The notes beneath the pieces are model-generated. The model made no database searches, had not been told where the DNA came from, and saw nothing but the letters and a program-made list of their open reading frames with translations. A DNA stretch of 64,000 nt from Bacillota bacterium (GTDB taxonomy: Bacteria > Bacillota > DTU065), in the NCBI GenBank assembly GCA_036721855.1, contig DAIMKF010000006.1, positions 758 through 64,757 of the forward strand. The letters run 5' to 3'. Below are positions 3,670 through 19,257 of the stretch, piece after piece. The number at the start of each line of letters is the position of its first letter. The stretch's first letter is position 1. Position numbers and translations under genes: made by a program.

Positions 3670-4020
3670 ATGGAATATACTCCAAGTTTAAGAGAGTTGT
3701 CCCGTTTAAATGAACGAGCCTTACTTCTTTATCACTTGGAATATGAAAAAGCTAAAAAACATTTGGAAACTGCTTACTTCCTTTGCCTTTTTGGTTTTTT
3801 GGGGTTGCATAAGTTTTACCTTGGCTATTCGGTTTGGGGCTTATTATACCTTGTTTTATTCATTGCCGGCCTGTTATTGCGCTCCCTTGGTATAGGCAGT
3901 GTTATTTTAGCTGTTCTAGCAATCTTTTTGATCGCAGATTTTGTCTCCTTACCTAAACAGGTCTCACAGATAAATAATTCTATCTCGGAAAGAATTTTAT
4001 CAGAAATTTATATAGATTGA
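3670..4020 (+). CDS. TM2 domain membrane protein
   Basis: LGLHKFYLGYSVWGLLYL fits the TM2 motif (G.H.FYLG), followed by a second hydrophobic helix. A GAGGTGGTG RBS precedes the ATG at 3670; the ORF opens at 3652. Confidence 0.65.
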   Translation: MEYTPSLRELSRLNERALLLYHLEYEKAKKHLETAYFLCLFGFLGLHKFYLGYSVWGLLYLVLFIAGLLLRSLGIGSVILAVLAIFLIADFVSLPKQVSQINNSISERILSEIYID

Positions 4021-4067
4021 TGAAGTTAATACTTAAGTTAAATTTCTTTCCCCTTAAAAAAATTACA

Positions 4068-4127
4068 AAGGAAAGACTGCGCCAGAATTACCCTGCATGC
4101 TAGTCTTTCCTTTATTGTTATTTTTTT
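4068..4127. terminator. Bidirectional rho-independent terminator between convergent genes
   Basis: AAGGAAAGACT (4068-4078) pairs with AGTCTTTCCTT (4102-4112), an 11-bp stem. A T-run follows on the plus strand, and a T-rich tail (tgtaattttttt) follows on the minus strand. Confidence 0.55.
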
Positions 4128-4207
4128 GTCCCCTGAAGCTATTATGACCTACTTTTATCATAAGAAACTTAACCTTGTCCTTTAGAGGAGATTTATCTCC
4201 ATGTTTA

Positions 4208-4525
4208 TTAAATATCCAAACTACCTTCGCTTTTTTCTTTGTTTTGTATTAACTTAGCCTCCTTAAGCTTTTTACTGAATGGGTCTGTGAAATAATTTTT
4301 CTTAAAACATCGCTTTATTAACTCCAAGACCTTACCTAACATAAAGAAAAGAAGAAAGCTTAAAAATGCTAAGGTGGTTACTGCCAATATTATTTGCCAA
4401 AAAGTCGTTGACTTTAACGCTCCCGGTACTTTTAAGAGAAGTAAAAGGACAATAATACCTATAACCAGATGCAAAATAGCAAGGCTTTTTCCCAGTAGAT
4501 AGATATACTGCAGCAACTTTACCAC
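4208..4525 (-). CDS. Hypothetical small membrane protein (2-3 TM helices)
   Basis: ORF with hydrophobic stretches (ILHLVIGIIVLLLLL, AVTTLAFLSFLLFFML). No family recognised. Confidence 0.4.
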   Translation of the reverse strand: MVKLLQYIYLLGKSLAILHLVIGIIVLLLLLKVPGALKSTTFWQIILAVTTLAFLSFLLFFMLGKVLELIKRCFKKNYFTDPFSKKLKEAKLIQNKEKSEGSLDI

Positions 4526-4583
4526 CCTTTCTTATTCCAATTATTTTACTAGTTACTCATACTTTTACTACTCCTAAGAGACA

Positions 4584-4617
4584 TAAAAAAGAGGGTTGAT
4601 TAATCATCTTCCCTCTT
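4584..4617 (-). terminator. Rho-independent terminator after atpC
   Basis: Minus strand: AAGAGGG aagatgattaatcaa CCCTCTT TTTTAT, about 25 nt past the atpC stop. Confidence 0.65.
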
Positions 4618-4641
4618 GATTATAGCAAAGCTTTTATAAAA

Positions 4642-5054
4642 TTAACCTTCCTGATAATCTACAGTCTTTAAACGCGCTAGTGCTCTTTCCAAAGCAAGTT
4701 TAGCCCTTAAGATATCTACATCGTGATCACTTATAAGTCTTTCTTCCGCTCTTTGTCTGGCTCTTAGTGCCCTTTGGACATCAATCTCAGCGGCAAACTC
4801 CGAAGCATCGGCAAGTACCTGCACATCATTGTTTAAAACATGCAAAAAGCCACCTGTACAGGACAGTTTTTCAAACGTATTGTTGTTTTCCCTGCGTACT
4901 TGTAAGACACCAGGCTTAAGTGAGGTGACCAAAGCAGTATGATTTGCTAAAACTCCGAGTTCTCCTTGAGATCCGGGTGCTATAACCATTTCGACTTCTT
5001 CATCAAAGACCACTTTCTCCGGGGTAACGATCCTTAGTCGAAAAGTATTAGCCA

Positions 5055-5055
<1 letters not shown>
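4642..5055 (-). CDS. atpC: F1 ATP synthase epsilon subunit
   Basis: 137 aa. N-terminal beta-sandwich pattern (LRIVTPEKVVFDEEVEMVIAPGSQGELGVLANH) and C-terminal helical hairpin. Last gene of the atp operon; its start overlaps the atpD stop. Confidence 0.9.
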
Positions 5056-6455
<1,400 letters not shown>

Positions 6456-7341: not shown

Positions 7342-8871
7342 CTATCTGTTAGATGGAATAAATTCTTGGCCAAACTCCTCAAGCGCTTTTTTAAGTGCAT
7401 TTTCGGTTTGCTCGGTTAATTCCTTGGTCTTATTGAGGGAATCATAGATATCTGCATGGAAATTCTCAAGATATTTAAGCATTTCAGTTTCATACCGAGC
7501 AATATCTTTAAGATGCAGATTATCAAGGTAACCGTTATTAGCAGCATAGATGATAGCTACTTGTTTAGCGATAGGCATTGGTTGATATTGATCCTGTTTT
7601 AGTATCTCGATAATCCGGCTTCCTCGTTCTAAAAGAGCCTTGGTGGCCTTATCAAGCTCGGAACCAAATTGCGTAAAAGCCTTTAATTCTTCATACTGTG
7701 AAAGATCCAGTTTCAGACGCCCAGCAACCTTCTTCATAGCTTTAATCTGTGCTTTACCGCCAACTCGAGAAACAGATATACCAACGTTTACAGCCGGACG
7801 GAAACCTGCAAAGAAAAGATCGCTCTCCAAAAAGATCTGCCCGTCGGTAATGGAGATTACATTGGTTGGAATATAGGCTGATACATCACCGGCCTGGGTT
7901 TCAATAATCGGCAAAGCAGTAATAGAACCTCCACCTAAATCTGCTCTTAACTTTGCAGCTCTCTCTAAAAGTCTTGAGTGGAGATAGAAAACATCTCCTG
8001 GGTAAGCTTCACGTCCCGGTGGACGCCTTAGAAGCAATGACATTGCCCGGTAGGCAACAGCATGCTTTGAGAGATCATCATAAATAATAAGCACATGTTT
8101 ACCCTGGTGCATAAAATGCTCCGCCATAGCACAACCCGCATAAGGCGCAATATATTGCAGTGGAGCACTTTCACTAGCTGTAGCTGCTACAACAATGGAA
8201 TATTCCAAGGCATTATGTTCTCTTAGCTTAGCTACTACTGAACTTACAGTTGAAGCTTTCTGGCCAATGGCTACATAAATACAGATTACATCCTGGCCTC
8301 TTTGATTAATAATGGTATCAACTGCAATAGCAGTTTTACCAGTCTGTCTATCACCAATTATAAGTTCTCGTTGCCCACGGCCAATTGGAAACATGGAATC
8401 AATAGATTTTAGACCGGTCTGCAAAGGTTCTGAAACCGGTTCTCTTTCAATAATGCCGGGTGCGTTATGCTCTATAGGCCTAAACTCGTTGCTCTCAACA
8501 GGGCCTTTGCCATCTAGGGGTAAACCAAGTGGATTAACAACACGACCCAAAAGTGCATCTCCCACCGGAACTTCGACCACACGGTTTAATCTGCGTACTG
8601 TAGAACCTTCTCTGATCCCTGTGTCTAAACCAAGCAAAACAGCACCGACATTATCTTCTTCCAGATTTAAAACCATGCCATAAACAGGGCTGCCATCTTG
8701 AGTTAAAAACTCAAGCAGTTCGCCACTCATGGCATTTTGTAAACCCCAGACTCTTGCAATACCATCTCCGACTTGAAGCACTGTGCCTTCGTCAGCTAAG
8801 CTGAGGTCGCCACGAAAGTTTTTTATCCGTTCTTGTATAACTGAAGTTATTTCTTCAGGACGTAAACTCAT
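7342..8871 (-). CDS. atpA: F1 ATP synthase alpha subunit
   Basis: [18 protein letters not shown] Walker A; [23 protein letters not shown]. Confidence 0.97.
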
Positions 8872-9431
8872 TGACTCTCACCTCTGGTTTTACCTTTGGT
8901 CTCTAAAAGTTCCCTTTTCATTTCTCGCAATTGATTAGAGATAGAAGCATCTATAACCTGATGGCCGATTTTTAATTTAACTCCGCCAATCAGTTCAGGT
9001 GTTATTTGAGTACTTAGATCAACAGGCCTTTTGGTTATCTGCTCTAGTCTAGATTGAATTTGCCGTACAAGCTCATTTTGGAGTGGAATAGCTGTTTCAA
9101 CCGTAACAGCCACTCGCCCCCGATATAGATTCGCTTCTCTTTTATAGAGGCTATTAATTTCCTCAAGGTGCTGCCAGCGCTTCTTTTCAATTAAGAGGTT
9201 GAGGAAGTTTTGCATCTCATTAGAAAAATTAGCAAAGGCCTCAGAAATCAGAGCCTGCTTATCGACAGGGCGAATCTTAGGATGAGTTAAATAAGTTTCC
9301 AAAACTTTGTTTTTTTTAAGGTAATCTGCTATTTCGTCAAGTTCTTTTTCAAAGGTGTCCAGCTTGCCGTTTTGAGCTGCAAAAGAAGCAAGTGCCATAG
9401 CATATCTGAGGGCTACCTCATTAGTGTACAT
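8868..9431 (-). CDS. atpH: F1 ATP synthase delta (OSCP) subunit
   Basis: Position between atpF and atpA; [13 protein letters not shown] start; C-terminal [16 protein letters not shown] motif. Confidence 0.85.
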
Positions 9432-9912
9432 CCACTTCTCCCACCTTATCTAAAAACTTTTCCACTAAAGCACGGTTAAGCTCTGCGTCCATGTTCTCGG
9501 TAATAATTTTGGACGCAGCTAGGACTGCTAATTCGGCTACTTGTTTTTTTAAATCTTCCTCAACTTGAAGCTTATTTTGTTTGATTTCCCAATCAGCTTG
9601 AGACTTGAGTTTTCTTGCTTCCTCTTTGGCTTGGGCCAGAATTCGCTCTCTGTTTTCGAAGCTCTGTCTTTCAGCCCTAGTCAAAATAGCTCTGGCTTCA
9701 TCTTCATAACCACGAATCTTCTCTTCATATTCTGTTAGTAGTCTCTCTGCTTCTTTCTTATTAGCCTCAGCTTCACTAAGAGAATCGGCAATATATTTAG
9801 CACGTTTGTTCATATATTCTGAAGCAGGCTTCCAAAAAAGCTTAGCGAGAACAAATACAAGTAAAAGAAAGTTTGCCATCTGTAAAATCCAAACGGAAAA
9901 ATCAAAGTCCAT
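9421..9912 (-). CDS. atpF: Fo ATP synthase b subunit
   Basis: Single N-terminal TM followed by a long charged helix (KRAKYIADSLSEAEANKKEAERL); operon position. Confidence 0.85.
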   Translation of the reverse strand: MDFDFSVWILQMANFLLLVFVLAKLFWKPASEYMNKRAKYIADSLSEAEANKKEAERLLTEYEEKIRGYEDEARAILTRAERQSFENRERILAQAKEEARKLKSQADWEIKQNKLQVEEDLKKQVAELAVLAASKIITENMDAELNRALVEKFLDKVGEVDVH

Positions 9913-9968
9913 TATGCCGTCCTCCTTTACTATTTATGGGGAGGCAAAGCCTCCCCATAGTATCCGCA

Positions 9969-10271
<303 letters not shown>

Positions 10272-10274
10272 TTA

Positions 10275-10955
10275 TTATTCTTTATTAGTAATATAAGCCA
10301 TTGATAACGAAACAAAAATAAGTGTCTGTATAACACCAGCAAAGACATCAAAATAAATATGCAAAGGTTGAGCTAAGAAAAAAAGAGGCCAGATCTTAAC
10401 CAAGGCTGTATAAACAATAGTCATAATAAGATAACCTGATAGCAGGTTGCCAAAAAGACGAAAGGTCAGCGAAAATGGTGCAGCCACCTCACCTATGATA
10501 TTAAGTGGTAGCAAAGGGATAAAAGGCTCGGCAAAGCCCTTTAAATAACTAAGTAAACCACCTCTAAAGGCTGTTTTCTGCACCAGAATAAATGTTAGGA
10601 TAGCTAAAGCTGCTGTTGTATGCAGATCACTTGTCGGTGGTCTAAATCCTACTAACCCGGAAAGATTGGCTACCAACAAAAAAATAACTAAAGTCCCGAA
10701 ATAGGGAATATATTTTTTATTGTGCTCTCCCATGTTGTCAACAACTAAACCTGAGATAAGTTCGTAAACCGCTTCTACCAAGTTTTCTATACCTTCTGGC
10801 GGTTTATTGATAGGTCGGTTTTTAAATAAGCGTCCGGCAAAATAGGCCAGTACCGTTAAAAATAACATGATTCCCCAGGTAACAACAACCATATCTGTTA
10901 TAGTAATAGTATTAAATAGTCTAAACAAGACAGTACCGCCAATACTAACTTGCAC
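10275..10955 (-). CDS. atpB: Fo ATP synthase a subunit
   Basis: Multi-TM protein with the conserved LTFRLFGNLLSG motif (essential Arg). Confidence 0.9.
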   Translation of the reverse strand: MQVSIGGTVLFRLFNTITITDMVVVTWGIMLFLTVLAYFAGRLFKNRPINKPPEGIENLVEAVYELISGLVVDNMGEHNKKYIPYFGTLVIFLLVANLSGLVGFRPPTSDLHTTAALAILTFILVQKTAFRGGLLSYLKGFAEPFIPLLPLNIIGEVAAPFSLTFRLFGNLLSGYLIMTIVYTALVKIWPLFFLAQPLHIYFDVFAGVIQTLIFVSLSMAYITNKE

Positions 10956-10961
10956 TGTGTT

Positions 10962-11342
10962 TCACCTCTTTTCTCCTTGACTCCCAGTAAAAAAAGCTTC
11001 AAAAAGAATAGCTATTCTTACCGAAAAAAAACCTATCATAGCTGCCCAGACATTAATAGCCGTCCAAAACTTAAGCATTATTATGGCGACGGAAATAAAG
11101 ACCATACGTCCAAAATAGCTACCAATAGCCGCTATTTTAGCTCCCTCCGGTTCCATTTGAACCAAACGCTTGGTTGCTAAAGACATTACAATAAAATTCC
11201 CCGCCGTAATAAGATAGCCATATAAAAATCCAAAGCCCCAGCTAGTTTTGCCCATAAAAAAGGAAACAGCTGCAGCCAGCACATCAATTATCAACGCACT
11301 TAACAAAACACGTTTTTCGAAAGCGATTTCTTTTATCTTCAA
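10962..11342 (-). CDS. atpI: ATP synthase protein I (AtpI)
   Basis: Four hydrophobic helices, immediately upstream of atpB. I prefer the TTG at 11342 (GGAGG RBS 7 nt upstream, just after the atpZ stop) over the ORF-track start at 11414. Confidence 0.65.
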   Translation of the reverse strand: MKIKEIAFEKRVLLSALIIDVLAAAVSFFMGKTSWGFGFLYGYLITAGNFIVMSLATKRLVQMEPEGAKIAAIGSYFGRMVFISVAIIMLKFWTAINVWAAMIGFFSVRIAILFEAFFTGSQGEKR

Positions 11343-11346
11343 TGCC

Positions 11347-11562
11347 TTACCTCCGATCCCCAAACCCCTTAATAACCAGAAGATATACATCACGCATACC
11401 ACCGATAAAACCAAGCAACATAAAAAGAAGCGGGACCCAATTAGGCCAGTTAAATTTTTTCGTTAAGAAAATACCTAAAAACATACCACCTAAGATAGGC
11501 ATTAAAAGAGCAAACCCAAGGTAGGCTAAAAACACGAACCCTTTTTGGCCTCTATCTTTCAT
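11347..11562 (-). CDS. AtpZ/AtpR-like small two-TM protein preceding atpI
   Basis: 71 aa with two TM helices (FVFLAYLGFALLMPILGGMFLGIFL, VPLLFMLLGFIGG), first gene of the operon. Resembles the small 'ATPase gene 1' family. Confidence 0.5.
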   Translation of the reverse strand: MKDRGQKGFVFLAYLGFALLMPILGGMFLGIFLTKKFNWPNWVPLLFMLLGFIGGMRDVYLLVIKGFGDRR

Positions 11563-11642
11563 GTTTTTTACCCCCCTCTAAATTAAAAGCGAGTTTGGTA
11601 TATGTTATTTTTAGCTTAACATACTAAAACCTAATCTTCTTT

Positions 11643-11671
11643 AATATACCAAAATAACCAAGCTTTAGCAA
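11643..11671 (-). promoter_or_regulatory. Putative sigma-A-type promoter of the atp operon
   Basis: Minus strand: TTGCTA (11666-11671), 17 nt, TATATT (11643-11648), about 80 nt upstream of atpZ. Confidence 0.35.
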
Positions 11672-11841
11672 TTGCAGCCGAGTAGATAAGTGTTACTAGC
11701 TGGATATTTCCTTAAAATTAGTTCCTTAGGAGAAAGTATTAATTAGGCCTATTTTTACCTGGGCTTTATCCCTAACAATTTTAATGAGTAACTTAATATC
11801 TATTCGCTACTTGTTTTGTGAGTTCCTTTATGTTTTTATCT

Positions 11842-11889
11842 AAAATAAAAAAGCGTGAATAGTGGTGTCTCTATCCACTTATTCACGCT
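11842..11889 (-). terminator. Rho-independent terminator after the OPX gene
   Basis: Triple stop TAA TAA TAA, then AGCGTGAATA..GTGG...CCAC..TATTCACGCT, followed by TTTTTTATTTT on the minus strand. Confidence 0.7.
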
Positions 11890-11897
11890 CTTTATTA

Positions 11898-14800
11898 TTA
11901 AAACCAAGCTCGCAATAGATTGCTCAAAGAACTGAGTATGCTAAGATAAGCTGCCATCTCAGTTGGATCTATCTTCTTGCTTCTTGCAACGTAAATTACA
12001 TCACCTGGATAAACTTCGGGATTTTCACTAGCACGTCCTTCAAAGACCAACTTGCCACTACCGGCAGAGATCTTAGTCTCAGCTAAAGGCTCACCGCCCC
12101 TGTAGATCTTTACGTTACCCAAATCAGTGAACTTTGTCGGTCCTCCGGCCATGGCTATCAAATCAATAAGTTTACTTGTCGGAGTAACACTAAAACTGCC
12201 TGGTTTTTCGACTTCACCTAAAACAGTAATGGGTTGAATCTCTCTGACTAGGATTGTTTCATCTCCAAAGAGAGGATGGTTTCCAAGAGGTGCATAACTT
12301 ACTACCTCTCCACGTTTAATTTCAATCTTATTAAGATCGGCGTTGTTTGTGACACCGCCGGCTAAAGCTATAATGGTTGCTAAGTCATCACCTTGTTTAT
12401 AGCTATACAAGCCAGGCCTTTGAACTTGCCCAAAAACTAGAATCTCCTTCCTAGCTTTGGGAATAAAGATTACTTCTCCCCCATTGAGAGTTAGGTTGCT
12501 TACGTCGGTCGGATCATTAACTGCTTGAGCAATATTAAGATTAGTAAATTGATCCTTTGTACGCAAAGAAATATCATAAGCAGCCTGATCTGTTAGACCA
12601 CCGGCTAAGCCAATAATATCCAACAATTTTTGCCCTTTGGCCATTGTATATAGACCGGGGTGAGTTATTTCACCCATAACTAATACATCTTTCTGCCATT
12701 CGGGAATTTCCAAAATATCGCCACCATAAAGTAGCTCATTATAAGACCAGTCGACCTGTTTTCTGACACCATCTCTAATAATAACAGCATTTTCTAAATC
12801 ACTTCTATCGGTTTGGCCACCGGCCATAGCCAGAGCATCACGTACTGAAAAACCTTCCTGCCAATTGTAACTACCCGGTCTTGCTACCATACCAAGTACC
12901 ACAATCCTCTGGTTGGATGCGCCAATAAATAGAGATTCTCCGCCTGTGAGCTTTTCTCTGGCATTTATTTCGACTTCTCTGGATTGACCATCTGCAATAA
13001 TTGTAACGGTTTTGGCTGCATCAGGCTCTAAGCCACCGGCTAAAGCAATTGCATCGGCAACAGCTAGACCTTTTTTTAACTCATATGAACCTGGTCTAAC
13101 AACTTTGCCCGCAATAATTATTTCTTTTATTTCAGGTATAAAGATCTTGTCACCTAGTTCAATAACTTTGGCCCCTAAATCAGTTAAAGAGCCTTCAAAA
13201 ACTGTATTTTCTCTCTCTAAGCGAATCCTATTTTCATCTGCTTTTGTAGAAAGCCCTCCACAAAGGGCAATCACTTCTAAAAGTGTTTGACCCTCTTTTA
13301 AGGTTAAACTGCTAGGATTACGTACAGCACCTAAAACTATAACCGGGCTTTTTTGTGGTATATAAATTGTTGTACCTGCAGGTATTGTTATATCTTTTTT
13401 GCTATCGGTAAAAATACTTTGCAGGTCAACTCTGTTTTCTCCGACCAAAACAGCTTTGAGATTGGCTGTTTCTTTGGGTCCACCTGCCAAAGCCAAAGCA
13501 CTAAGAATAGTCTGTCCATCTTGATAGTTATAGCTACCGGGTTTTGCTACTTCACCTAAGACTAAAATCATTTCGGCGGAAGTCCCTACAAAGAGGGATT
13601 CTCCACCTAATAACATATCCCGTGAGTTAACTGGGACCTGATAGGTCTGTCCATCTCTAAATAGAGAAACTTTGTTGGCTGCATCACTTAAAAGACCACC
13701 TGCCAAAGCTAAGGCATCTGCAACTGTAAGTCCGGACTTTATCTCATACGAGCCTGGCTTTACAACTCTGCCTGCAACCACAACCTGTTTTTTCTCAAAA
13801 ACAGTAATTGTATCGCCATACTCTACTTCTTTGATGCCAAGTTCTGCTAACGGCCCTTCTAAAGTCTCGCCTTCTCGTTTTAGAGATATTCTTTCAGGAT
13901 CAGCTCTTTCGGTAAGCCCTCCTGAGATAGCAATCATTTCTAGGATTGTCTGACCTTCTTGCGGTATAATACTACCTGGATTTTTTACAAACCCTAAAAC
14001 CAAAACCGGACTCTTCTTGGGTATATAAATTGTTGTACCGACAGTTAGGTTAATATCTTTTTTAGGTTCTGCAAACAACTCAAGTACATCAACTTTTATA
14101 TTGTTGATTAATACATCTTTTAAATTAGCATTGTTTGTAGGTCCACCTGCTAGAGCTAAGGCACCTAAAAGAGTCTGTGCCTGTGAATAGGTATAGTTAC
14201 CTGGCTTTGCTACTTCACCTAATATTAAGATCATATCTTTGGCCATATCTATAAATAAAGATTCTCCGCCTTGAAGCGGGTCTCTGGCCTTGGTAAAAGT
14301 CTCATAACTTATTCCTGAATGAAAAACAGTTACTTTACTAGAAGCATCCGGTAACAGGCCTCCGGCTAAAGCTATGACATCAGCTACACTCATACCGTCT
14401 TTTATCTGGTAGGCACCGGGACGGACAACCTTGCCTGCAATAACTACCTGTTTCTTTTCAGCAACAATAATGACATCGCCAAGTTGAACTTTTTTGTCAT
14501 CTAATTCGCTGAAAGAACTTTCAAAAATAGTACCGTCTCTATTAACGCGGATGTCATTTTCATCGGCATTAACTGTTAAGCCACCAGCTAAAGCTATAAC
14601 ATCTAAAATAGTTAGTTCTTCGGTTTGGATATAAGTACCCGGATTTTTTACCGCACCCAAAACTAAAATAGGTCTTGCCGCTGGAAGATTAATCGTCTCA
14701 CCAGCTGTAAGCTTTTGGTCTAGTTGTGGGTTTTTAAGTATGAAATCTAAATCTATTTGCTTGTCTCCTAGCTGAAGATTTTTTAGATTAGCTGTTGGTA

Positions 14801-15206
14801 ATGGACCTCCAGCCATGGCCAAAGCATCTAAAAGAGTACTTCCTACCTCTAAATTATAAAAACCAGGTTTAGCAACTTGTCCTAAAATTTGCACTCGGAA
14901 AGTACGATATTTAATAATTTGCACTGTAACTAATGGTTCTCTAATATATGGCTCAAATCTATGTGCTATCTCTGTTTCGACCTCAGTTAGAGTCAAGTTG
15001 TTAACATCAAGTTGACCGGCCAAAGGAATAGCTATACGGCCGTCGGGACCTACTATTACTTCTGTTTTAAACTCCGGTCTTTCCCACACGGTGATTAAAA
15101 GATTGTCTCCAGGCCCTAATCTGTATAAATCAGCAGACCAGACACTACCAGTTAGTAATAAAAATAATAACAGAAAGAAACTACACAATTTGAACCTTTT
15201 GTGCAT
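11898..15206 (-). CDS. Outer-membrane polysaccharide export (OPX/Wza-like) protein with about 13 SLBB domains
   Basis: Signal peptide. N-terminal Poly_export-like region (YRLGPGDNLLITVWERPEF...VGPDGRIAIPLAGQLDV). Thirteen recurrences of the SLBB signature V.GxV..PG.Y......T..DA.A.AGG. Confidence 0.8.
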   Translation of the reverse strand: MHKRFKLCSFFLLLFLLLTGSVWSADLYRLGPGDNLLITVWERPEFKTEVIVGPDGRIAIPLAGQLDVNNLTLTEVETEIAHRFEPYIREPLVTVQIIKYRTFRVQILGQVAKPGFYNLEVGSTLLDALAMAGGPLPTANLKNLQLGDKQIDLDFILKNPQLDQKLTAGETINLPAARPILVLGAVKNPGTYIQTEELTILDVIALAGGLTVNADENDIRVNRDGTIFESSFSELDDKKVQLGDVIIVAEKKQVVIAGKVVRPGAYQIKDGMSVADVIALAGGLLPDASSKVTVFHSGISYETFTKARDPLQGGESLFIDMAKDMILILGEVAKPGNYTYSQAQTLLGALALAGGPTNNANLKDVLINNIKVDVLELFAEPKKDINLTVGTTIYIPKKSPVLVLGFVKNPGSIIPQEGQTILEMIAISGGLTERADPERISLKREGETLEGPLAELGIKEVEYGDTITVFEKKQVVVAGRVVKPGSYEIKSGLTVADALALAGGLLSDAANKVSLFRDGQTYQVPVNSRDMLLGGESLFVGTSAEMILVLGEVAKPGSYNYQDGQTILSALALAGGPKETANLKAVLVGENRVDLQSIFTDSKKDITIPAGTTIYIPQKSPVIVLGAVRNPSSLTLKEGQTLLEVIALCGGLSTKADENRIRLERENTVFEGSLTDLGAKVIELGDKIFIPEIKEIIIAGKVVRPGSYELKKGLAVADAIALAGGLEPDAAKTVTIIADGQSREVEINAREKLTGGESLFIGASNQRIVVLGMVARPGSYNWQEGFSVRDALAMAGGQTDRSDLENAVIIRDGVRKQVDWSYNELLYGGDILEIPEWQKDVLVMGEITHPGLYTMAKGQKLLDIIGLAGGLTDQAAYDISLRTKDQFTNLNIAQAVNDPTDVSNLTLNGGEVIFIPKARKEILVFGQVQRPGLYSYKQGDDLATIIALAGGVTNNADLNKIEIKRGEVVSYAPLGNHPLFGDETILVREIQPITVLGEVEKPGSFSVTPTSKLIDLIAMAGGPTKFTDLGNVKIYRGGEPLAETKISAGSGKLVFEGRASENPEVYPGDVIYVARSKKIDPTEMAAYLSILSSLSNLLRAWF
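12694..14682 (-). repeat. Intragenic higher-order tandem repeat, 663-bp (221-aa, three-SLBB) unit
   Basis: ggtatataaattgttgtacc occurs at 13357 and again at 14020, exactly 663 bp apart. The protein units QVVIAGKVVRPGAYQIKDG... and QVVVAGRVVKPGSYEIKSG... align over about 220 aa, with more diverged copies on both sides. Confidence 0.6.
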
Positions 15207-15300
15207 TATTCTACCTCCATGTTTCGAAACTTCCTATCTGCTTCTTTTAGTTTCAACACTTACATATTAATTCCTGCACTGTAATTTATTACATTTAATT

Positions 15301-15328
15301 AGAGCCACTGATTTTTTTCAGCGGCTCT
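15301..15328. other. Stem-loop between the secreted repeat-protein gene and the OPX gene
   Basis: AGAGCCACTGA (15301-15311) pairs with TCAGCGGCTCT (15318-15328), an 11-bp stem with one G-U. The T-rich tail is on the plus strand only, so it may not terminate minus-strand transcripts efficiently. Confidence 0.35.
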
Positions 15329-15345
15329 TTATCTTTTGAACTCAC

Positions 15346-16260
15346 CTAAAAATAAACACCTGTAACCAATATGTCGTATCTTATTTCTAATGAAAGTTTG
15401 GTTCCACTTGGAATAATAAGTTCTTTACCTTTTACAAAAAATCCTGTAGCTAAGCTACCTTGATTGAAAATGACTGCTCCATCCACAGAAGGAGTTGCCA
15501 CAACACCTTGGGTTTTTGAGTTAAATTCTTTGATGGTTCTGTCGGTCATTCCTACTTTAAGATTAGTTTCGTCGATAGCTTCAAGACCAGTAAAAGATAC
15601 CTCGATACTACCACCTTTACCAAGGTTACCCGATGGTGAGACATTAAGAACTGATCCTCGGCCTTGCCGACCGGCAGGAATAACAACTCTGTCATTCACC
15701 TTAACATCCTCAACAACGGTATAGCTTACAACTGCCCCAGCTTTAGTATTTTCAGAATCTAGAATTGTATCTAATTGGATTTTCACTAAAGTCCCGGCTG
15801 GCATTTTTACACTCTCGGTCTTAAAGCTGCCGGAGGGAAAAATGTCCTTGCTGATTGTATTAACTCGCGAAAAAATTGTGCCTCTGTTTAATCCGCCATA
15901 AAATTGCTGTTCAATTTCATTTAATCGCGTGATAACAGAACTGCTAGAAAACTTCTGAAATAATGCCCATTCAATAACATTGAGTCTAAGTGCCACCGAA
16001 CCTTCAGGAAAACTTTCTCCCTTGACATAATTATAAGCGTTAGATAAACGAGGAACAAAAGCATCTTCTTTAATTTCACCGAAAATATCTTGTTCAATAC
16101 GGCTTAATCTAGTAGCAAATGGACCTGTGTCGGATTCACCATATAGTAATTTTTCAATTTCTACAAGAGCTTGCTGGGGAGGTGGCATTTCCACAGCTAA
16201 TGATGTGAAAGGCATGATAAAAAACAATGACATTAATAAGAAAACTGTCAATTTCCTCAT
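15346..16260 (-). CDS. Secreted protein: about six 20-aa repeats (RL..IE...FG) plus a C-terminal beta-rich domain
   Basis: Signal peptide (FIMPFTSLAVE). Repeats include RLSRIEQDIFG, RLNVIEWALFQ, RLNEIEQQFYG and RVNTISKDIF. C-terminal MPAGTLVKIQLDTILDSENTKAGAVVSYTVVEDVKVNDRVVIPAGRQGRGSV resembles the TrbI/VirB10-type pattern by eye. Confidence 0.45.
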   Translation of the reverse strand: MRKLTVFLLMSLFFIMPFTSLAVEMPPPQQALVEIEKLLYGESDTGPFATRLSRIEQDIFGEIKEDAFVPRLSNAYNYVKGESFPEGSVALRLNVIEWALFQKFSSSSVITRLNEIEQQFYGGLNRGTIFSRVNTISKDIFPSGSFKTESVKMPAGTLVKIQLDTILDSENTKAGAVVSYTVVEDVKVNDRVVIPAGRQGRGSVLNVSPSGNLGKGGSIEVSFTGLEAIDETNLKVGMTDRTIKEFNSKTQGVVATPSVDGAVIFNQGSLATGFFVKGKELIIPSGTKLSLEIRYDILVTGVYF

Positions 16261-16275
16261 ATCAAGATCCTCCTT

Positions 16276-17523
16276 TTAAAACTGGATACTAATTTCTGCA
16301 GTAGCTAAGTTTTCATCAGCTGTCTTGCCTGTGCTTTTTTCGGAAGAAGTTACCAAACGATAAGCTAAGTTAATATAAGTACTATTGCTAAAGTCATAAC
16401 CAAGTTTTAAATTGGCAGTATTACTTTCTTTTTCATTTTCTCGATTATAGTATTGATAATCAGCTTCAATACTTGCCTGAAGAATATCAATTTTGATACC
16501 TGCAGTTGCACCTTTTGTTGTAGCAAGTCCTTTTTCATTATCCTTAACTCCACCATAGAGCAAGCCAGCTTTTAATGTTGCCCACTGCCATATAGGAATC
16601 CCTACAACCAAAGAAGTTACCTGTGGCACCTCAATTTTTTCTTTACTAGTTGGAGGTATGGCAAAAGGTGGTTCAGGATTATAGATTTTACTTCCATCTT
16701 CGGTTATATAAGAATATAAAGGGCTATCTAAATAAGTAGCTAGTTCAATTTCGCCTAGTTTTACTGTAAAACCCAATTCAGGAATATTAAACGGTTTACT
16801 GCCAAGCCAGCTTTTTCTGGTGTTATAACTAGCCCCTAATTCGACAGGACCAACCTTCCATGCAGCTTGAAATCTATAAGGCTGTGTTTGTGAGCTAGAC
16901 ACAGCTCCACCTAAAGATACCTGGCCTAACTGAACTTCACCAGCAAGCTCATATTTGCCAAGTTGTGACATGTTTATATAATCCAGTCTAAATCTTGCCC
17001 AGTCAGCTAGCTCTTCAGTATAACTGGCTACAAATGGTTTAATCATTTCTGTGAATGTCTGTGCTAACTCACTATCTGCATTCCATAGACTATATAGTGC
17101 GACTTGGTTTTTTTCTTGATATACAGCAAACTGACCAAAATAAAAACCATAACCAAGATCATTAAGCTCGTTGCGATATTTATAAGTTAACCCCATTAAT
17201 GTTTGAACAGTTTCGGTAGTTAAATTAGGACAACGTGCTGTAATCTCAGGTATTTCATTAATAAGTGCCGGTAGATTAACTACTAGGCGTTCATAGTTGC
17301 CATCAAGATTAAAACCTGTGACTCTTTTCCATGCTCTGCCGACAAGATTTGCCAGTTCATAAGGACTGGTATTTTCGGCTTTTAAAATCGCACTCGCTTC
17401 CTGTGGTTGCAAAAGCCCTGAAACAACTAAGATATTAAGTTCATTTTTCTCGTTTTTGGCTAGAACAAGCCCTGAACATATGGTAGCAATAACCAATATA
17501 AGGGCGGTAAAATTGTTCTTCAT
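16276..17523 (-). CDS. Putative outer-membrane protein: N-terminal soluble domain plus C-terminal beta-barrel
   Basis: Signal peptide. Alternating hydrophobic beta-strand pattern in the C-terminal ~230 aa. Terminal ...AEISIQF matches the aromatic C-terminal OMP signature. Confidence 0.5.
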   Translation of the reverse strand: MKNNFTALILVIATICSGLVLAKNEKNELNILVVSGLLQPQEASAILKAENTSPYELANLVGRAWKRVTGFNLDGNYERLVVNLPALINEIPEITARCPNLTTETVQTLMGLTYKYRNELNDLGYGFYFGQFAVYQEKNQVALYSLWNADSELAQTFTEMIKPFVASYTEELADWARFRLDYINMSQLGKYELAGEVQLGQVSLGGAVSSSQTQPYRFQAAWKVGPVELGASYNTRKSWLGSKPFNIPELGFTVKLGEIELATYLDSPLYSYITEDGSKIYNPEPPFAIPPTSKEKIEVPQVTSLVVGIPIWQWATLKAGLLYGGVKDNEKGLATTKGATAGIKIDILQASIEADYQYYNRENEKESNTANLKLGYDFSNSTYINLAYRLVTSSEKSTGKTADENLATAEISIQF

Positions 17524-18150: not shown

Positions 18151-19257
18151 TTAAATAACAAAACCAACTATTATACCTGCAATACCTGCCAAAAGACCAA
18201 GAATAGCAATTGTTCTTGTGCTCTTGAGGTCCTTTTCCATTTTAATAATCTTATCGTTTTGTTCATCAAGTTTAGTTTGCATGTCGTTAACACGATTGAT
18301 AGTTACATATTTCTTCTCTAAGTCCTCCTGAACATTAGCTATTTTGGCATTACTTTCTTCAATTTTTGAATCTGTGTAGGTAATAGCTTTTGATTCAGCA
18401 GTTTCGACGTTCTCTAAAAGAGTATTAACCTTTGCATTAACCTCTTCTAAATCTTTATCAGTTTCGACAACATACATATCAAACAAGGTAAATATATTTT
18501 CCGATAGAGCTTTGTTGCTTTCGATTCTTTTCCCTAATAAAGTTGTCTCCTCATCAAACTTAATATCCAAGTTATTTATCTCGCTTGACAGCCTCTGGTC
18601 CATAGCTTTTAACTCGTTACCATTTTCCTCATAAAACAATTCAAACAACACAAATAAGTTTTCCGAAAGTTTCTTATTACTTTCGATTCTTTTACCTAAG
18701 AGAGTTATTTCCTCATCAATCTTAATGTCTGTATCTTCGGCCTTTCTCTCTAAAGCGGCTAATTTCTCAGCATATTCACCAATTATTGCCTTAACTTCAT
18801 CTTCTTTTAAACCTACAAGCTCGTGTACTATATGTTTTTCAATGATTTTTTCAACTGGTTTTTCAATATACTCTTTTTCGACGATTTTAGTTACTTCAAC
18901 CGGTTCTTGAACTACTCTATCTACAATTGTCTTTTCAATTATAGGCTGAACAGGTTGATTAACTGTTACAGGTTGCTGAATTATTCTTTCGACGACGGTT
19001 GCCGGTTGTTGTTCTATTCTATCTAAAACTTTGGCCACTAAAACAGCTACAGCATACCTATTCATTGGTTCGCTACCATGATAATTACCATCTGGCATAC
19101 CTGTTATTAAACCTTCGTCAACAAGCTTTGCTACTGCGTCATAAGCCCAGTGATCTGAAGGAATATCAGGAAATTGAGCAGAGACAACAAAGCTAAAACT
19201 CATAATAGTAATTACAACTACTGCCAGAAATTTAGTGACACGCTTTCTCATATGCAT
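18151..19257 (-). CDS. SLH-domain protein with a long coiled coil and a C-terminal transmembrane anchor
   Basis: Signal peptide. One SLH domain (FPDIPSDHWAYDAVAKLVDEGLITGMPDGNYHGSEPMNRYAVAVLVAKV). About 250 aa of heptad-rich sequence with a duplicated ~55-aa unit (KIDEEITLLGKRIESNKKLSENLF / KFDEETTLLGKRIESNKALSENIF). The protein ends in IAILGLLAGIAGIIVGFVI. Confidence 0.8.
   Translation of the reverse strand: MHMRKRVTKFLAVVVITIMSFSFVVSAQFPDIPSDHWAYDAVAKLVDEGLITGMPDGNYHGSEPMNRYAVAVLVAKVLDRIEQQPATVVERIIQQPVTVNQPVQPIIEKTIVDRVVQEPVEVTKIVEKEYIEKPVEKIIEKHIVHELVGLKEDEVKAIIGEYAEKLAALERKAEDTDIKIDEEITLLGKRIESNKKLSENLFVLFELFYEENGNELKAMDQRLSSEINNLDIKFDEETTLLGKRIESNKALSENIFTLFDMYVVETDKDLEEVNAKVNTLLENVETAESKAITYTDSKIEESNAKIANVQEDLEKKYVTINRVNDMQTKLDEQNDKIIKMEKDLKSTRTIAILGLLAGIAGIIVGFVI

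Follow-up and report, generated by a model that had tools for sequence, protein, structure and literature searches.

An outer-membrane polysaccharide export protein with 13 SLBB domains in an uncultured diderm Bacillota, and co-variation of SLBB number with the length of an outer-membrane tether

Described export systems and the present locus

Three classes of outer-membrane polysaccharide export (OPX) protein have been distinguished, among them Class 1, with the architecture Poly_export-SLBB(1-14)-Wza_C, and Class 3, with Poly_export-SLBB(1-7) (Saidi et al. 2022, PMC9603273). The gene considered here encodes an OPX protein of 1102 residues with 13 SLBB domains, and lies at 11898..15206 on the minus strand of a 64,000-nucleotide stretch of an uncultured Bacillota genome (GCA_036721855.1, contig DAIMKF010000006.1, positions 758 to 64,757), which we call the window and to which all coordinates refer unless another contig is named. 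Among its relatives, the number of SLBB domains co-varies with the stalk length of a protein that carries an SLH domain and tethers the outer membrane, at about 19 residues per SLBB domain.

The closest described counterpart is the Class 1 protein Wza of E. coli K30 (PDB 2J58; Wza-Wzc complexes 9R60/9R64), which is the best match in both sequence and fold. Poly_export, SLBB and an amphipathic C-terminal helix are common to the two proteins, and both are paired with a Wzc-type polysaccharide co-polymerase and a bacterial tyrosine kinase (BY-kinase). Wza, however, has two SLBB domains rather than 13, is a lipoprotein whereas the window's protein has a plain signal peptide, and ends in a helix of ~35 residues that matches Wza_C, in place of ~21 residues without such a match; moreover, unlike in the Wza system, co-polymerase and kinase are split and unlinked in the window's genome. 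By Pfam alone the protein would be a "Class 3 with 13 SLBB", outside the tabulated Class 3 range, and relatives with 16-23 SLBB domains exceed both tabulated class ranges of PMC9603273. The bare multi-SLBB architecture is already on record (up to 14 SLBB, PMC9603273), in a survey that covers the same kind of protein but leaves unanalysed the long forms, the history of their repeats and the organisms that carry them. Our literature search found no paper in which SLBB and Limnochordia are mentioned together, and as far as the literature searched goes, a match in length between SLBB array and tether is undescribed.

Further comparisons concern the proteins around the exporter. The Myxococcus xanthus OPX proteins WzaX/S/B and their partners WzpX/S/B (PMC12819527) likewise combine an OPX gene beside a barrel gene with a hydrophobic or aromatic C-terminus toward the outer membrane. 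These Class 3 proteins are lipoproteins with one SLBB domain and a PgaA-like 18-strand barrel, whereas the candidate barrel of the window has ~230 residues of strands, a weak Porin_4 match and homologues that are not always adjacent to the OPX gene. The tether resembles OmpM (V. parvula OmpM1, PMC10628300) in its SLH domain and helical stalk, and Omp-alpha of Thermotoga in ending in a transmembrane (TM) helix; the stalks treated here measure 146-673 residues, as against ~50 in V. parvula OmpM1 (PMC10628300). Finally, a longer Lpp in E. coli makes the periplasm wider, and RcsF then fails to signal unless it is lengthened as well (PMC5736177), which embodies the same principle, namely that a tether sets the width of the envelope and a trans-envelope part must match it. 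The Lpp/RcsF case is engineered and concerns a signalling lipoprotein, whereas the variation described below is natural and would affect an export channel by whole folded domains.

The OPX protein and its SLBB array

The first-pass annotation had described the product as a 1102-residue Wza-like exporter; its open reading frame (ORF) was confirmed, and membership in the Wza family is supported by Pfam, NCBIfam, the match to Wza in the PDB, and Foldseek. The Poly_export (PES) domain, PF02563, occupies residues 27-97 (14916..15128, minus strand; 80 bits against a cut-off of 28, E=1.4e-22). PF10531 matches 13 separate SLBB stretches (450 bits, E=3e-138), and a second SLBB model, PF22461, likewise matches 13, the number previously counted by eye. 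The best NCBIfam models are those of the exopolysaccharide exporter EpsE and the PEP-CTERM-system exporter (pepcterm_export), and in a PDB sequence search Wza chains align only with residues 27-212 (E ~1e-18). The protein is secreted and combines Poly_export with at least one SLBB domain, as expected of the OPX family. No PF06251 (Caps_synth_GfcC) domain, which would point to a KpsD-like Class 2 protein, is found among its Pfam matches at E<=0.01, and in the Foldseek results GfcC resembles no more than individual beta-grasp units, and these weakly.

Export would begin with a Sec signal peptide at residues 1-24 (...GSVWS/AD; 15135..15206, minus strand), for which AlphaFold2 (AF2) predicts a helix at residues 2-23. 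As the first-pass annotation had remarked, there is no lipobox, unlike in Wza: the sole N-terminal cysteine, C8, precedes the hydrophobic core and varies among orthologues. N-terminal lipidation is typical of about 78% of Class 1 OPX proteins and does not strictly define the class.

Self-comparison places the starts of the SLBB units at residues 105, 180, 254, 326, 401, 475, 547, 622, 696, 768, 841, 922 and 993. Units 1-9 consist of three ungapped blocks of 221 residues (663 bp), each with the same succession of unit types, A-B-C: units 1-3 (residues 105-325; 14232..14894), units 4-6 (residues 326-546; 13569..14231) and units 7-9 (residues 547-767; 12906..13568), all on the minus strand. The blocks share 50-57% of their amino acids and 56-63% of their nucleotides in ungapped pairwise comparison, and units in like positions are 44-61% identical versus ~30% for units in unlike positions. 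Units 10-13 (residues 768-1075; 11982..12905, minus strand) are four distinct types, D, E, F and G, and are 33-36% identical to the A-B-C triplet, the level of any pair of SLBB units.

We conclude that a 663-bp block of three SLBB domains was long ago duplicated in tandem, twice over, to give units 1-9. There are exactly two occurrences of the 20-mer GGTATATAAATTGTTGTACC, at 13357-13376 in the third block and 14020-14039 in the second, 663 nucleotides apart (0 expected in shuffles); it is the only exact word that the copies have in common. Tandem Repeats Finder, run on 11000-16000, reported no repeat, because the copies are too diverged; their DNA identity of only 56-63% indicates that the duplication is old and not the product of an assembler. 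The same 1102-residue protein is recorded, identical, on 12 contigs, and another species of the genus encodes a protein with 13 units in the same arrangement, 83% identical to it. Given this age, variation in SLBB number between strains is not expected.

The higher-order duplication of three SLBB domains proposed in the first-pass annotation is thus borne out by unit identities, unit typing and the unit tree, and the repeated 20-mer lies where it had been placed. Two details change. The 221-residue units do align end to end, without gaps, and number three rather than two; the more diverged copies supposed to lie on each side do not extend to the C-terminal side, where units 10-13 are no closer to the triplet than SLBB units in general. 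Two antisense ORFs, at 13012-13290 and 13672-13953 on the plus strand (92 and 93 residues), are mirror images 660 nucleotides apart, as had been noticed before, because the sense-strand sequence is repeated.

SLBB number among relatives

The window's class is represented by six species in four genera among the genomes compared, and the named relatives are metagenome-assembled genomes of uncultured "Bacillota/Clostridia bacterium" (SL1-B34.1, DTU065, UBA4881, AS05jafATM_29). With a hidden Markov model (HMM) built from the 13 units, we counted 13, 13, 11, 10, 8 and 6 SLBB units in the six species of the window's family; Pfam confirmed the count for the 6-unit protein. In the five other species the locus is syntenic gene for gene, and only the length of the OPX gene differs markedly. 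The comparison of orthologues suggested by the first-pass annotation therefore gives a clear answer: the count varies, from 6 to 13 within one family, at a fixed locus.

A maximum-likelihood tree of 61 SLBB units, together with best-match typing, resolves seven supported types, A to G. The architecture ABC-ABC-ABC-DEFG is found in the window and its congener, and the other members of the family have ABC-AABC-DEFG, ABC-ABC-DEFG, A-ABC-DEFG and A-AB-EFG. Types E, F and G are present in one copy each in every orthologue. In the alignment, insertions and deletions start and stop at the boundaries of SLBB units. They affect the central part of the array, and unit 1 and the final three units are retained throughout. 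In the unit tree, the window's units 1-3 are orthologous to units 1-3 of another genus of the family (g2), so at least one triplet duplication predates the split of these genera.

Database homologues of the same layout contain 6-19 SLBB units among the matches listed, and one Limnochordia genome encodes an OPX protein with 23, which brings the range over relatives to 2 to 23. The 13 domains of the window's protein are not exceptional in this clade. Geochorda subterranea, a cultured relative, has 9. In two Limnochordia loci, L075 (G141:C1) and L056 (G122:C116), the OPX coding sequence is broken into two frames that overlap (5+3 and 6+3 SLBB units); a frameshift, loss of function as a pseudogene or an error in sequencing may be the cause. 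In the relative with two SLBB units (L095, G014:C75), a gene of 554 residues (ORF 3852-5513, minus strand) sits between the OPX gene and p30x, the gene for a secreted protein that is described below.

Co-variation with the SLH tether

Four genes upstream of the OPX gene, at 18151..19257 on the minus strand, is a gene for a protein composed of an SLH domain (Pfam SLH), a rod and a C-terminal TM helix, which we interpret as an outer-membrane tether. In the alignment of the family, all differences in tether length lie in the rod, which we measured between the end of the SLH domain and the TM helix. The six species have 6, 8, 10, 11, 13 and 13 SLBB units with rods of 146, 160, 171, 199, 264 and 268 residues, respectively (Spearman's rho 0.99; exact permutation p 0.008 with one species per genus-level point). 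The tether of the window's genus contains an internal duplication of ~50 residues (DIKIDEEITLLGKRIESNKKLSENLF... / DIKFDEETTLLGKRIESNKALSENIF...) that the family's other genera lack and that makes up most of the additional length of the rod.

In loci of the Limnochordia type the tether is OmpM-like, with an SLH domain, a stalk and a barrel, and stalk length again follows SLBB number: 194 residues with 7 units (one locus), 208-214 with 8 (two loci), 189-213 with 9 (nine loci), 212 with 10 (one locus), 302 with 11 (one locus), 266-329 with 12 (six loci), 319 with 13 (one locus), 302 with 14 (one locus) and 673 with 23 (one locus). Two automated estimates of where the barrel begins were abandoned in favour of motif-anchored boundaries and manual reading. 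One, based on an HMM, was unstable; the other, based on the density of G, F, W and Y, missed known boundaries by as much as ~120 residues.

On a tree of the p30x protein, long forms alternate with short ones, which implies that switches in length are repeated events, and we computed Felsenstein's independent contrasts on this tree. Across 29 loci the contrasts in SLBB number and stalk length are correlated with r=0.90 (p=5e-11) and a slope of 20.2 residues per SLBB; leaving out both the 23-unit case and the window's family gives r=0.89 (p=2.5e-8) and a slope of 17.8. A set of 33 loci, which adds G014, Geochorda, G063 and the outlier G140 to the earlier ones, yields r=0.71 (p=4.5e-6; slope 19.2) with the outlier and r=0.89 (p=1e-11; slope 19.1) without it, and of the 18 contrasts in this set in which SLBB number changes by one or more, 17 agree in sign. 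Neighbouring genes served as controls: SLBB number is unrelated to the length of DUF3084, which is also a coiled-coil protein of the envelope and is encoded in the same operon (r=-0.01), or of p30x (r=-0.16), and does not follow that of the neighbouring barrel either (r=0.33, p=0.08). Complete co-polymerases (complete genes and database gene calls only) measure 470-515 residues across SLBB counts of 8 to 23, and the barrel part of OmpM lengthens slightly with SLBB number in six loci.

SLBB number and the length of the stalk in the SLH tether therefore change together, at ~19 residues per SLBB. In an alpha-helix, ~19 residues span ~28 Å, near the height of one Wza ring; Dong and colleagues are said to have put Wza, in 2006, at roughly 100 Å over three periplasmic rings. 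By such a measure the 14 rings predicted for the window's protein would come to ~420 Å, versus at most ~400 Å for the rod of 264 residues, and the seven rings of the 6-unit species would come to ~210 Å, versus ~220 Å for 146 residues.

Predicted structure and C-terminal tail

An AF2 monomer model, computed with a 39-sequence alignment, folds each SLBB unit as a beta-grasp, with a mean local confidence score (pLDDT) of 81 and a global score (pTM) of 0.31, so that the relative placement of the domains in this monomer is uninformative. Foldseek ranks Wza and the Wza-Wzc complexes first among the matches to the model, and poly-ubiquitin chains next, as expected of tandem beta-grasps.

The protein ends in a predicted amphipathic helix (residues 1081-1102, TEMAAYLSILSSLSNLLRAWF; 11901..11966, minus strand), modelled by AF2 at residues 1081-1101. 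The first-pass annotation had suspected such a helix, and its properties agree with the suggestion: over ~21 residues it has a hydrophobic moment of 0.39 and a face of Ser, Asn and Thr, and the tail is the most conserved stretch in the alignment of the family, with invariant residues. Nearly all of the first ~60 homologues listed have a tail of 23-30 residues. The isolated tail, however, gave no match to Pfam Wza_C (PF18412), even at E<=10.

Co-polymerase, kinase and pathway

The window's OPX gene is the sole Poly_export gene of the genome. The first-pass annotation had proposed a search for a co-polymerase partner, and one is present: a single Wzz-domain protein of 474 residues on contig C13, with two TM segments and a periplasmic part of ~380 residues that is rich in coiled coil, followed directly by a BY-kinase of 248 residues with the Tyr-rich tail YGSYYSHYYYYYTHSDD. 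These two genes (C13:6847-8977, minus strand) lie apart from any OPX or glycosyltransferase gene; the genome supplies the Wzz/GNVR (PCP-2) co-polymerase and the BY-kinase expected as partners of an OPX protein. According to the gene calls, OPX, Wzz/GNVR co-polymerase, kinase and CpsB-type phosphatase are contiguous in 11 of 12 relatives' loci, while in the twelfth the co-polymerase alone follows the OPX gene and a BY-kinase is absent from the locus; the full cassette also appears in the ORF listing of a further relative, G091. This cassette is the equivalent of Wza-Wzc-Wzb and is split in the window's family.

The search for a cognate Wzx and Wzy was answered in part, since the genome has two Wzx-like Polysacc_synt genes and two Wzy_C genes, none of them linked to the OPX gene. 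No match to the initiating transferase Bac_transf (PF02397) was found in the genome, which is only 88.5% complete, so that its absence is not established. On the basis of these gene assignments, the OPX protein probably serves a Wzc-type pathway, with co-polymerase and tyrosine kinase, for capsule or exopolysaccharide.

Genomic neighbourhood

The draft assembly of the host comprises 79 contigs and totals 2.06 Mb. The genes that lie upstream of OPX and share its strand are those for the 304-residue p30x protein, a 415-residue barrel candidate, RuvX, the SLH-domain protein and DUF3084, and further upstream those for LptF/G, LptB, MsbA, LpxB, LpxI, LpxA, FabZ, LpxC and LptC. The OPX gene thus sits in the outer-membrane and lipopolysaccharide cluster known from diderm Firmicutes, and its host is an uncultured diderm Bacillota. 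A terminator-like hairpin with a T-run (11855..11878, minus strand) lies 20 nucleotides past the OPX stop codon, and the same-strand neighbour downstream is the atp operon, with a promoter-like site ahead of atpI.

The gene directly upstream of OPX (p30x; 15346..16260, minus strand) encodes a conserved secreted protein of 304 residues and is syntenic in the family and in Limnochordia. Pfam reports a weak TrbI match in only three of nine members, and PDB sequence searches with the single protein and with a nine-member profile gave no usable match. Upstream of p30x, at 16276..17523 on the minus strand, is the candidate outer-membrane beta-barrel of 415 residues (Pfam Porin_4, E=2.4e-6; C-terminal ...ISIQF), with positional homologues in relatives. 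A PDB sequence search with the barrel candidate gave no match, and its AF2 model (pLDDT 46) is too poor for fold comparison, for instance with PgaA or Wzp. That it might be the split-off barrel of an OmpM is unsupported, as it is dissimilar to the OmpM-type tether; it resembles instead the separate barrel that adjoins p30x in loci that also carry OmpM. The pair of barrel and p30x is found directly upstream of OPX in every outer-membrane-cluster locus examined, from the window's class to Limnochordia, while in four relatives the OPX cassette is located elsewhere, without an adjoining barrel or p30x.

Interpretation of the SLBB array

The explanation we favour, with a probability of about two in three, is that the protein is the OPX component of a Wzc-type pathway in a diderm Bacillota and that its SLBB rings are stacked as a conduit fitted to the distance set by the tether. 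Protomers would assemble into a ring-shaped oligomer as in E. coli Wza, with one ring per domain, and the 13 SLBB rings, stacked together with the Poly_export ring, would make a conduit some 40 nm long, running from the outer membrane to the crown of a constant-size co-polymerase near the cell wall. Gain and loss of whole domains would then fit the conduit to the distance between wall and outer membrane that the SLH tether sets, and the C-terminal helices would form either a Wza-like helical pore or the anchor of the stack beneath a barrel. The co-variation with the tether lends indirect support to the long periplasmic conduit already imagined in the first-pass annotation. We also lean, by a narrower margin of confidence, toward a more general statement: the SLBB array may be an evolvable modular ruler in diderm Bacillota (the window's class, Limnochordia and their neighbours) that is kept in register with the coiled-coil stalk of the tether, at ~19 residues (~28 Å) per ring, while the co-polymerase stays constant.

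Several observations weigh against this explanation. One locus, G140, is a clear outlier, with 9 SLBB units and a rod of ~545 residues, and G014 combines 2 SLBB units with a stalk of ~135 residues. The raw slope in Limnochordia is nearer 30 residues per SLBB, or ~45 Å per unit if fully extended. The ends of the stalks were placed by conserved motifs and by eye, and the contrasts were computed on the tree of a single protein. Ring stacking, octamer stoichiometry and ring height are all carried over by analogy from E. coli Wza, and the pTM of 0.31 leaves the inter-domain geometry of the model uninformative. The OPX gene has neither a glycosyltransferase cluster nor a Bac_transf gene linked to it, and the one broad survey, over 92 pairs of OPX protein and periplasm in Gram-negatives, detected no relation of OPX length to periplasm thickness (PMC9603273). 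The tether of G140 (L051, G140:C4; ORF 8564-10543, minus strand) is itself of the Omp-alpha type, with ~640 residues and two near-identical segments of ~100 residues, which reflect either a recent duplication or an assembly problem.

Three other explanations were weighed. The OPX protein may lack an outer-membrane pore of its own, its C-terminal helix acting as an in-plane or monotopic anchor like the Phe-Phe tail of the Class 3 protein WzaB, with the polymer leaving through a partner barrel, most likely that of 415 residues and perhaps together with the 304-residue protein. This is a tentative possibility, less likely than not, with the following points in its favour: the tail fails to match Wza_C at any threshold used, its helix has ~21 residues versus ~35 in E. 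coli Wza (PMC9603273), the order barrel-p30x-OPX is conserved from the window's class to Limnochordia, the barrel and the OmpM-type tether are different proteins in loci that have both, and Class 3 OPX proteins act with an adjacent barrel (PMC9603273; PMC12819527). Adjacency is weak evidence, however, because the whole outer-membrane cluster is syntenic, and it fails in the four relatives whose cassettes lie elsewhere; the length of the barrel does not follow SLBB number, its model is too poor to be compared with PgaA or Wzp, and the amphipathic, Ser/Asn/Thr-faced and family-invariant tail is what one would expect of a pore-lining helix.

An explanation that dispenses with a conduit altogether is that the extra SLBB domains form a flexible string of beta-grasp modules that bind sugar or wall, for example holding the polymer or threading a thick wall, and that the correlation with the tether stems from shared ancestry or from joint expansion of repeat-rich envelope genes. 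SLBB domains are ligand-binding modules by name and in the literature (PMC9603273), the AF2 monomer shows no confident packing between domains, the outlier G140 shows that a tether can double with no change in SLBB number, and the OmpM barrel part also grows slightly with SLBB number. We nevertheless judge this explanation unlikely, as the correlation survives independent contrasts, with 17 of the 18 informative ones of the same sign, and is absent for the coiled-coil protein DUF3084 of the same operon; the slope agrees with the height of one ring, and insertions and deletions take whole units and spare the first and the last three, as would fit a stack with fixed ends. That the repeat number is itself an artefact, a tandem repeat collapsed or inflated in the assembly of a metagenome, might be feared of a draft in 79 contigs at 88.5% completeness, and is extremely improbable: copies only 56-63% identical in DNA, with a single 20-mer shared exactly, are too diverged to be mis-assembled, the identical protein is recorded on 12 contigs, and the second species of the genus reproduces the 13-unit layout.

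Implications for diderm Firmicutes

The Wza/Wzc field has yet to settle how polysaccharide crosses a periplasm whose width varies, and this clade offers a testable case, in which the locus is fixed, the co-polymerase is constant, and OPX proteins range from 2 to 23 SLBB domains with a tether that varies alongside. If the modular ruler proposed above is correct, SLBB number and stalk length would predict the distance between wall and outer membrane from sequence, from ~20 nm to possibly 70-100 nm, and envelope width could thereby be estimated for diderm Firmicutes that have not been cultured. The clade would also represent a natural experiment on the co-evolution of periplasm width and the machines that span the envelope, in which tandem duplication at the level of domains would be the mechanism that tunes the length of the channel.

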